64,000 bases of DNA from Thermodesulfobacteriota bacterium (lineage in GTDB: Bacteria > Desulfobacterota > Desulfarculia > JACQYL01), in NCBI GenBank assembly GCA_963675595.2, contig CAXXLZ010000001.1, forward strand, positions 1,152,001 through 1,216,000, read 5' to 3'. A program made the position numbers and the translations under genes. Positions 54,782 through 56,821 of this stretch are shown here, in pieces (the stretch's first letter is position 1; each line of letters opens with the position of its first letter). The notes under the pieces were generated by a model. The model was not told the origin of the DNA, ran no database searches, and saw only the letters and a list, made by a program, of their open reading frames with translations.

Positions 54782-56821
54782 TCACCTCCTTTCCTCTTGG
54801 ATACTCTGGGGGGCACGCAGAAGATTCATCTCAACCAGAATCTCCAGGGCTTCCCGACAAGACTCGAAAAATGCATCGAACCTCATGCCTTCGCCATGGC
54901 GAAGATACAGCTCTTCGGAAATGGAGCGAAGGTCGCGCCTTCCATCACATTTGTCGATGAGATCGTTCCCAAAGGCATTGATTTCCGTAATCTCCAGCCG
55001 ATCATCCGCGTGTTGGAACACCAACACGGCCTCCGAAGGGGAATAATCCGCGCGAAACAGGCCGTTCTTCATATCCGCGACGATTTCAGGCAGCGGGTAC
55101 TCGAACTTCTTGATCAGAAAATCGTTCCTGCGCAGGGGGGTAAATTGGTGGAGCCCCAACAGATCCATATGAAAAGGCGGTTCCTTCAACTCCAATCGCC
55201 CCGCTTCAACGCCCGCCGCCTCATAGCGGATCATATCCGGAAGATGGCGATAAGAAAGAATCGCTTTGTCACTTAGGAGTCGCCCGACGAAGGAAGCGAG
55301 ACCTTGATGACACTCGGAAGGAGAAAGCGACGGAGTCGTCTTGTTGTGGTCGATCTTAAGACGGCCGAGCCATTCCAGGAAAAGTGCGGAAGGCGACCGG
55401 CCCGTTTCGAGCGTCAAAAGGGCGAAGGACTTGGGGAACAGGTTGACCACGATGGGAAAATAGTCGGCAAGAAGAGCCAGATCATCGAGATCGAATCCGT
55501 CACATGGGACATTATAGAATGCTGAGAATATCTCGGGATCCGAATCAATCAGACGATCATCCTCCGGAAGGCGCTTGCCCTGAAGAAATTCCAGTCCCAG
55601 AGAGAAATAGGTGTCCACTCGACGCTCCAAAACGGGAAGCGACTCCTTGTGAAGGTCTGTTCCCGGCAGAACCGTGGGTAGCTGAATGATGGTGTTAACG
55701 TCGCCCAATATCCCGGTCTGCAGAGCCAGCCACAAAGTCGCGTCCACGTCTTCCTCTCTCTCTTTCGGGAAGCCCGTCACGTAACTCAGAGTGGGAACGA
55801 TGCCCTCTTCCGTTGTGCTGCGGACCCGATCCAACAAAATCTCTTTGTCGATGCTTTTCCTAATGTAGGCCAGGGTCTTCTCGGAGCCCGAGTCAATGCC
55901 GTAGCACACGGATTCGCATCCGGCCTCGCGCATCAGTTTCAGCAGAGCACCATCCACGCCGTCCAGTCGTGAAATGCAATACCAGGGAAGATCGTTCAAT
56001 CCTTCTTGGATCATCTTCCCGCAGAATTCCTCCACGAAATCGCGATGGGAAGTGAATTGGTCATAGGCCAACAGAAGGCACTCCGCCCCGTGGTTCCGTT
56101 TGAGGTGTCCGACTTCCCGGATCAGGCGACGGACGGAAAAGCGACGCGTTCGCCTCCGCCACAGTACCGACTCGGAGCAATAAATACACCGGTGAGGACA
56201 TCCCCTTCCCACCTCAAGAATCGCGATGCTGCGAGTCAGTCCGCAGGCGTCGCGATAAACCGAAAACTCGGGAACCAGGGAATAGTCCGGCAAAGGAAGA
56301 GAGTCCAGATCGGCGATGAGAGGCCGATCCTCGTTTCGCAAGATTTCCGTTCCTCTTCGATAGGAGACTCCGGGCACATCTTCCGGTCGGGTGGAATCGA
56401 AGGTGCTCAACCATTCGGGAAACGAGACCTCCCCTTCCCCGCGTACTACGGCATCCACCCATGGATATCTCTGCAATGTCTGTAGGTCCACGCAGGAAGC
56501 CGTGTGGCCGCCCAAAGCGATGTGCAGCCTCTTGTTCATTTCCTTCAAAAGGCGAGCGATCCGGAGAACCGCCGGATAAGTAGTACATTGGGCACTGAAT
56601 GCCACCACATCGGGGTCAACCGACAGCACGGCTTCGGCGCAATCGGAATAAATGGACCGTCCCGGCTTCAATGCACCGCGCCGGATCCCTAAAACGAAGT
56701 CATGGATCGTCACTTGGTGCCCCCGAGACTTCAAGGCACCGGCAACGTTAATCAACCCCAACGGGGGAAGATTATAGAGAGATTCCAGGTAGAATGGGGG
56801 AAATACCAGTGATATCTTCAT
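54782..56821 (-). CDS. B12-dependent radical SAM peptide maturase with C-terminal RRE/DUF2063-like domain
   Basis: PPLGL, GGHTAS, RGEGE, EVGRGCPHRCIYC, YDQFT, YGIDSGS; winged-helix-like tail LIDKCDGRRDLRSISEEL..LEILVEMNLL. Confidence 0.88.
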   Translation of the reverse strand: MKISLVFPPFYLESLYNLPPLGLINVAGALKSRGHQVTIHDFVLGIRRGALKPGRSIYSDCAEAVLSVDPDVVAFSAQCTTYPAVLRIARLLKEMNKRLHIALGGHTASCVDLQTLQRYPWVDAVVRGEGEVSFPEWLSTFDSTRPEDVPGVSYRRGTEILRNEDRPLIADLDSLPLPDYSLVPEFSVYRDACGLTRSIAILEVGRGCPHRCIYCSESVLWRRRTRRFSVRRLIREVGHLKRNHGAECLLLAYDQFTSHRDFVEEFCGKMIQEGLNDLPWYCISRLDGVDGALLKLMREAGCESVCYGIDSGSEKTLAYIRKSIDKEILLDRVRSTTEEGIVPTLSYVTGFPKEREEDVDATLWLALQTGILGDVNTIIQLPTVLPGTDLHKESLPVLERRVDTYFSLGLEFLQGKRLPEDDRLIDSDPEIFSAFYNVPCDGFDLDDLALLADYFPIVVNLFPKSFALLTLETGRSPSALFLEWLGRLKIDHNKTTPSLSPSECHQGLASFVGRLLSDKAILSYRHLPDMIRYEAAGVEAGRLELKEPPFHMDLLGLHQFTPLRRNDFLIKKFEYPLPEIVADMKNGLFRADYSPSEAVLVFQHADDRLEITEINAFGNDLIDKCDGRRDLRSISEELYLRHGEGMRFDAFFESCREALEILVEMNLLRAPQSIQEERR

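Follow-up and report, generated by a model that had tools for sequence, protein, structure and literature searches.

The window analyzed here comprises 64,000 nucleotides of a genome assigned to Thermodesulfobacteriota (assembly GCA_963675595.2, contig CAXXLZ010000001.1, positions 1,152,001 to 1,216,000) and carries, at 54782..56821 on the minus strand (stop codon included), the gene of a 679-aa cobalamin (B12)-binding radical S-adenosylmethionine (SAM) enzyme with a C-terminal recognition tail. We conclude, with a probability of about 0.8, that this tail (residues ~441–679) is a fused leader-recognition module, distantly homologous to the stand-alone partner proteins of MNIO (DUF692) enzymes (NGO1945/HvfC/BufC, TglI, and ApyI), and that it recruits the Cys-repeat peptide encoded downstream, a candidate precursor of a RiPP (a peptide made on the ribosome and modified after its translation). 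A first-pass annotation of the window had read the tail as a DUF2063/HvfC-like partner joined to an oxygen-independent enzyme, in an anaerobic analog of oxazolin/bufferin systems. Its observation is confirmed and its interpretation is supported in part, the fused recognition module being retained and the bufferin/oxazolin-type system not.

The C-terminus reads, as translated, YRHLPDMIRYEAAGVEAG...FTPLRRNDFLIKKFEYPLPEIVADMKNGLF...VLVFQHADDRLEITEINAFGNDLIDKCDGRRDLRSISEEL...CREALEILVEMNLL, and the tail sequence quoted in the first-pass annotation is an exact match to the translation of 54782..56821 (−). The stretch 54782-55450, to which it was assigned, covers residues 458–679 plus the stop codon; the tail truly starts at about residue 441, because the alignment of the protein to the core model of the ApyD family stops at 440. 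It consists of a helical domain with five to six helices in AlphaFold2 models, including the HLPDMIRYEAA helix (residues 441–545, 55187..55501, −), and a winged-helix RiPP recognition element (RRE) domain (residues 560–672, 54806..55144, −). The AlphaFold2 model of the complete tail, made from the same alignment that served for our hidden Markov model (HMM) searches (A2), has a predicted local distance difference test score (pLDDT) of 80.9 and a predicted TM-score (pTM) of 0.74, and displays six helices followed by a strand-helix-strand-strand-three-helix winged helix. The helical domain modeled alone reaches a pLDDT of 87.0. As modeled, the tail corresponds to the description of PqqD-like RREs, a three-stranded sheet plus three helices that would accept the leader as a fourth strand.

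When the tail model was compared with the PDB using Foldseek, only three matches appeared at E ≤ 1e-3, namely chain A of TglHI twice (2.4e-5 and 2.9e-5), which must be TglI because of its fold, and 3DEE (4.7e-4, TM 0.59/0.68), which is NGO1945, the prototype of DUF2063. The structural comparison with NGO1945/HvfC-type proteins that had been suggested as a check has therefore come out in favor of the similarity. The tail has the same arrangement as the NGO1945/TglI-type MNIO partners, a helical domain and then a winged-helix RRE, with the helical domain aligning to residues 31–117 of 3DEE and 56–148 of TglI; searched on its own with Foldseek, this helical half has no match at E ≤ 1e-3. The first ~55–63 residues of the stand-alone partners are missing from the tail, the alignments beginning at residue 31 of 3DEE, residue 56 of TglI, and column 64 of the A7 and A3 partner alignments described below.

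The tail shares 31–39% identity with those of 28 homologs (alignment A4, 29 tails). Its most conserved motif is LE[VI][TS][EQA]INxFG, around strand beta3 (residues 607–615, DRLEITEIN, 54977..55003, −), which is the predicted leader-binding strand according to the complex model (see below) and to conservation, and at least 25 of 26 full-length homologs share residues Y533, E534, N615, F617, and G618. Given this conservation and the confident fold, the tail exceeds chance. Its profile is found in a single place in the 6.79-Mb genome. The other B12-binding radical SAM enzyme of the window (3373-4716) has no such tail, as had been stated before, being 447 aa long with family matches limited to residues 99–407.

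At the sequence level, the connection with the DUF2063/HvfC partners runs through a group of stand-alone proteins. When 1.84 billion proteins were searched exhaustively with the HMM of A2, 96 gave E ≤ 1e-3, comprising fragments or whole copies of the fusion, other ApyD-like B12-binding radical SAM enzymes (650–700 aa), and ~20 stand-alone proteins (220–305 aa). Among the 13 long matches that were scanned, ApyD was the best family in 12 (under the cut-off) and no family was found for one; their tails include three matches to HvfC and two to ApyI. As for the stand-alone matches, 17 of the 22 scanned hit the HvfC and/or ApyI models, all under the cut-off, and five hit neither, while the cluster names of ten such relatives read "hypothetical protein" or are missing. 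We also noticed that seven of these 22 (P0057, P0063, P0067, P0074, P0086, P0090, and P0095) match the NHLP-clan "Os1348" peptide domain (NF038399) within their first ~60 residues, the stretch that the fused tail lacks.

Profile–profile comparison (hhalign) of the 29 tails with an alignment of 14 stand-alone relatives (A7) gave an E value of 1.2e-25 over 210 columns, beginning at tail residue 15, i.e., in the helical half. A7 was in turn aligned to A3, a set of five partners that the HvfC model had picked out from genomes of this phylum, with an E value of 4.3e-14 over 260 columns. Each of these five is PF09836-positive (50.9–63.8 bits) and sits next to an MNIO gene (342–378 bits). Using protein P0106 as query we obtained four loci with stand-alone relatives of the A7 member P0086, and in the three with upstream DNA they come directly after MNIO genes (264–276 bits), the fourth locus being cut. 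A single-protein search of metagenomes with P0057 gave no match, and the A7 profile recovered fused tails and short RRE pieces only, with no stand-alone form, over 401 genomes of the phylum. Some enzymes lead to the same families directly. Homologs 49% identical to the window enzyme (over 641 residues) match the HvfC model with E values of 4.3e-8 and 4.6e-7 (33.3 and 29.9 bits, positions 93/94–234 of 237, under the 142-bit cut-off), and the ApyI matches of the P0002–P0005 tails extend past the RRE, that of P0004 covering as much as model positions 64–245 (not so for P0006). Within NCBIfam, the window tail alone matches only ApyI (E 6.7e-5), over the last 70 model positions, which are the RRE of that MNIO partner.

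Upstream of the tail, the protein belongs to the class B (cobalamin-binding) radical SAM enzymes, since it combines a B12-binding domain (residues 15–136, 56414..56779, −; PF02310, E 3.2e-18, 66.1 bits) with a radical SAM core (residues 203–363, 55733..56215, −; PF04055, E 3.1e-18, 66.9 bits), both above the Pfam cut-offs, and with the CX3CX2C motif inside that core (C208/C212/C215, 56177-56200, −), kept in 26 of 26 homologs. The top NCBIfam match is ApyD (NF050148), the B12-binding radical SAM enzyme of the aminopyruvatide RiPP biosynthesis, with 242.8 bits over residues 18–440 only. With a cut-off of 750 bits our enzyme is not a member; the equivalog also demands an ApyA-type precursor and a cluster with ApyH/I, whereas the precursor here is a different one and the genome has no MNIO. 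A word-indexed search detected six full-length relatives of the enzyme among 2674 candidates. In the alignment of 26 full-length homologs used for residue conservation (L014, L009, L010, and L011 were left out, being cut or handled separately), 13 of the 16 cysteines are invariant in all 26, ten of them outside CX3CX2C (C79, C193, C248, C267, C282, C302, C306, C440, and, within the tail, C504 and C655). Such a set is unusual for a B12-binding radical SAM enzyme and, judging from the sequences, may reflect an extra metal site or iron–sulfur cluster; a simple methylase reading is weakened by these invariant cysteines beyond the motif.

The precursor peptide gene (54631..54777, −, stop included) encodes 48 aa, MLKTSKVESRKCSSNATACHAPACHAPACHAPACHAPACHAPACHGPK, and its ATG lies 4 nt past the enzyme stop, with AGGAGG within the last codons of the enzyme. 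Residues 1–18 form the leader and the core is made of six xCH(A/G)P units, encoded by a 15-nt tandem array of 6.4 copies with 87% matches (54637..54732, strandless, Tandem Repeats Finder). The copies differ at synonymous Ala and Pro positions, and selection on the peptide is visible at the protein level. Other-frame open reading frames (ORFs) over the array (window 54503-54960, +, and 54620-54816, −, e.g., MAGRSMAGRS...) are by-products of the repeat and not genes. A promoter and terminator scan of 53600-58000 revealed no promoter-like site, and terminator-like sites at the level of chance (six found, 4.8 expected).

Scanning species-representative genomes with A2 yielded 26 related loci, from Desulfobacteraceae, Geobacteraceae, Desulfuromonas, Pelobacter, Desulfovibrionales, and unclassified "delta" or Thermodesulfobacteriota metagenome-assembled genomes (MAGs), with two labeled Pseudomonadota. 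Within the 700 nt that follow the enzyme gene, 23 of the 26 have a peptide that shares the leader, with four to nine Cys-spacings counted, and the three loci without it all end ≤220 nt from the match, at contig ends. The Cys-repeat peptide thus accompanies the enzyme here and also in those 23 related loci, and L011, from another family of the phylum, has the peptide after its enzyme as well. We aligned 23 precursors, those of the window, of L011, and of 21 loci, leaving out L012 (no start codon by the pattern) and L022 (peptide identical to that of L021). Invariant positions are E8 and, in each of the first four units, C, H, and P; M1, L2, K3, and V7 are almost invariant. The family can be described as a MLKxKKVEKK leader plus five to ten xCHAP units. 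By inspection of the alignment, the leader has 17–18 hydrophilic residues without a hydrophobic core, and hence no Sec signal peptide.

The tail (A4) and the peptide (A5) were also folded together, along with three controls. The complex scored 0.75, against 0.01 for the best control, and this mark is reached by 116 of 157 solved complexes and by two of 215 mismatched pairs. At least 50% of the contacts recur across the three runs. Leader residues 1–13 are placed against tail residues 167–175 (protein residues 607–615, DRLEITEIN), 137–142, and 202–225, V7 has the lowest expected error, and the conserved leader residues M1, L2, K3, V7, and E8 all fall inside the modeled contact segment. This modeling suggests that the RRE of the tail binds the leader of the peptide.

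Around the related loci we scanned 54 neighbor ORFs. Of the 26 loci, eight have a Trm112-like/class I methyltransferase after the peptide, as does L011, 12 have an M19 dipeptidase, and eight have a small nitroreductase-family gene (PF00881) upstream of the enzyme and divergent from it. The latter loci (L016, L019, L023, L025, L027, L028, L033, and L035) are mostly labeled Geobacteraceae or "delta proteobacterium," and the gene may represent either shared synteny or a flavin-dependent tailoring step. Neither a DoxX, sigma factor, exporter, or metal gene nor a P450 was detected among the scanned neighbors. The genome studied here does have a methyltransferase of this kind (47% identical, E 1.6e-91) adjacent to an M19 dipeptidase (175 bits), but this pair (G000:C1:808819-810673; L038 and L039) is outside the window, ~396 kb from the enzyme and with no CHAP peptide beside it, i.e., the cluster is split in this genome. 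No match to MNIO (PF05114) was found in the genome, which is 98% complete, and it carries dsrB (above the cut-off) and CbiC, which fits an anaerobe making B12. Of 401 sampled genomes of the phylum, 11 carry the tail family, and none of 13 other genomes of the same class does.

Several results speak against a shared origin of the tail and the MNIO partners. Pfam returned no match for the tail or for the last 240 residues; DUF2063 (PF09836, gathering threshold 27.2 bits) is absent at E ≤ 1 from the protein and from the tail, and a six-frame scan of the genome with it gave zero matches. The HvfC model (NF050145, cut-off 142 bits) likewise has no match to the protein at E ≤ 1. The direct hhalign comparison of the tails to A3 is not significant (E 0.16 with six tails, 0.093 with 29), the alignment of the 29 tails being colinear over 201 columns and pairing HLPDMIRYE with the dLA.LEw helix of the partners. 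Only the A7-to-A3 link is independent, because A7 was chosen from tail-profile matches. PDB sequence searches with the tail, A2, and A4 miss both 3DEE and TglI, a blank that is uninformative because the control alignment of true DUF2063 proteins (A3) misses them too. With regard to leader binding, the partner pLDDT in the complex model is 44, leaving the fold of the peptide itself uncertain, and the high score may reflect likeness or model memory since solved RRE–leader complexes exist. The undetected DUF2063 and the direct E value of 0.09 would suit an ordinary RRE of the PqqD type that merely follows a C-terminal helical domain native to the enzyme class, in which case the helical likeness to DUF2063 and TglI would be general and not ancestral. 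We consider this unlikely, because the match to the stand-alone MNIO-type partners begins already in the helical half, those partners align full-length with DUF2063 proteins, and the P0004 tail covers ApyI model positions 64–245. What holds of the resemblance to DUF2063/HvfC partners claimed at first is the relationship via the stand-alone bridge; formal membership in Pfam DUF2063 or in HvfC does not hold by score. It is very improbable that the winged helix is regulatory, binding DNA or another protein as in the old annotation of NGO1945/DUF2063, with the small ORF not being a substrate at all. The tail forms one chain with an enzyme, in 23 of 26 loci the peptide gene comes next and shows selection at the protein level, the complex model is far above its controls, and, according to PMC12452194, proteins of the DUF2063 type are nowadays regarded as partners of MNIO enzymes that have RRE-type domains.

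The role of the product is a separate question. It is possible, but less likely than not, that the (xCHAP)n peptide, once modified, acts as a RiPP that sequesters metals, comparable to bufferins and oxazolins but anaerobic. This reading agrees with the six to ten Cys-His pairs per peptide, invariant in all 23 aligned precursors, with a genome that lacks an MNIO gene and has dsrB, and with the type of the recognition module, which serves the Cys-rich, copper-binding bufferins (PMC12452194). However, the same paper describes bufferin-type precursors with a Sec signal peptide, which the leaders here do not have, and none of the genes for DoxX, sigma factors, exporters, or metal handling was among the 54 scanned neighbor ORFs; the methyltransferase and the M19 dipeptidase, which are the conserved neighbors, would suit tailoring or breakdown into small units no less than a metallophore. 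The missing Sec signal peptide, together with the absence of DoxX and sigma factors among those neighbor ORFs, also sets the system apart from the bufferin/oxazolin type. Metal binding by the peptide may still be proposed as a working hypothesis.

Returning to the fused leader-recognition module, three points are direct results of computation, namely the match in fold, the chain of homology, and the pairing that enzyme and peptide keep across loci, and a mechanism can be proposed from them. The leader, which is short and hydrophilic (MLKxKKVEKK...), would be bound by the RRE as an additional strand next to beta3 (607–615), and this docking would hold the (xCHAP)6 core, presumably the substrate of the enzyme, at the radical SAM active site, where each Cys-His unit would be modified in turn, without oxygen. 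The covalent fusion could replace the MNIO-docking piece (alpha1–alpha3 of TglI), given that the tail has no counterpart of the first ~55–63 residues and that these helices of TglI help to grip the MNIO, and the methyltransferase and M19 dipeptidase would complete the cluster in most related genomes. Most probably the enzyme processes the Cys-His units one repeat after another, and the reaction may equally well be C-methylation, a C–S bond, or another cross-link. C-methylation is the commonest reaction of the B12-binding radical SAM class. A more speculative scenario, which we regard as rather unlikely, is that a portable MNIO-partner adaptor moved to a B12-binding radical SAM enzyme and that (xCHAP)n constitutes a new RiPP class, its Cys-His units being converted without O2 to a sulfur/imidazole-based ligand. 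The product would then be either a multi-site metal-binding peptide (the anaerobic counterpart of bufferins) or, after the action of the M19 dipeptidase and the methyltransferase, many copies of a thiohistidine-like molecule.

With regard to the other genes nearby, a glutamine cyclotransferase with a signal-like N-terminus (window 53748-54584, −; PF05096, E 7e-98) starts 46 nt after the peptide stop. We do not count it as part of the system, since none of the related loci that were scanned has it and Gln is missing from the peptide. Directly upstream of the enzyme, on the same strand and with a 45-nt gap, is an ADP-ribosylglycohydrolase (window 56867-57811, −), also found upstream in one related locus (L032:1447-2460, −, divergent), which could be chance or a link. 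Just downstream, on the opposite strand (window 48179-53814, +), there is a run coding for a 778-aa protein, a short ORF with a J-domain-like start, a 254-aa protein, a 613-aa Hsp70-like protein, and a 162-aa ORF. The 162-aa ORF has weak, sub-threshold zinc-ribbon and TPR matches, and the labels of the other genes in that run were read from their translations.

The principle of the fusion is already known, because ApyD has been published as an RRE-containing B12-binding radical SAM enzyme and SbtM-type enzymes carry a DUF2063-like region. Within the open literature (PMC and bioRxiv; subscription papers and supplements were outside the scope), we found no description of xCHAP peptides and, in the parts of the sources available, none of a DUF2063/TglI-like domain on a B12-binding radical SAM enzyme; the ApyD preprint mentions neither "DUF2063" nor "TglI." The xCHAP peptides together with their B12-binding radical SAM enzyme, usually with the methyltransferase and the M19 dipeptidase, apparently form a compact, conserved, and undescribed RiPP family, found in sulfate- and metal-reducing Thermodesulfobacteriota. 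If our reading is correct, a helper module so far tied to MNIO enzymes also exists as a built-in domain of cobalamin-dependent radical SAM enzymes, and it provides a handle for finding such enzymes and peptides missed by the Pfam and NCBIfam cut-offs. The chemistry on the invariant Cys-His-x-Pro unit is directly approachable by co-expression.

Compared with the known systems, the partners of the NGO1945/HvfC/BufC type (Pfam DUF2063 plus NGO1945_C; NF050145) are separate proteins encoded beside the MNIO, whereas the module studied here is joined C-terminally to a B12-binding radical SAM enzyme, lacks their first ~55–63 residues, stays under every family cut-off, and is accompanied by peptides without a signal peptide. 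In contrast to bufferin/oxazolin systems, where a signal peptide, DoxX, and sigma factors are found, the neighbors here are a methyltransferase and an M19 dipeptidase. TglI, with which the tail shares 14% sequence identity, consists of a helix domain at the N-terminus, a linker, and an RRE at the C-terminus, and, according to the TglHI structure paper (PDB 8HCI/8HI7), docks on the TIM-barrel MNIO TglH partly via helices alpha1–alpha3, which have no counterpart in the tail.

ApyD, the nearest characterized relative, gives the best family match for the catalytic part and is published as a Tyr C-beta-methylating enzyme, i.e., a C-methyltransferase. A stand-alone relative of the tail, P0081, matches positions 413–621 of the ApyD model. 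Yet the window tail does not align to this model, the precursor has xCHAP repeats instead of a C-terminal GYLYD, this genome lacks an MNIO, and the scanned neighbors of the related loci include no P450. The thio(seleno)oxazole-modifying radical SAM maturase SbtM (TIGR04082) also carries a DUF2063-like region, but an N-terminal one, and by its name it is not of the B12-binding class. A Pfam-verified DUF2063 partner beside an MNIO (L004:1195-1995, −) matches SbtM positions 24–175 (E 2.1e-11), and the region therefore seems to be built into that family too. With respect to the peptide, the "Cys-every-fifth RiPP peptide" CefA (NF038108) likewise has Cys at every fifth residue. It was rejected as the family of our peptides, with 16.7 bits for the window peptide, and 16.2–18.5 bits in four of five tested and no match in the fifth, at a cut-off of 30; nothing more than a similar composition of the repeats may underlie the likeness. 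Specific features of the peptide family described here are its invariant CH.P unit and its MLKxKKVEKK leader.

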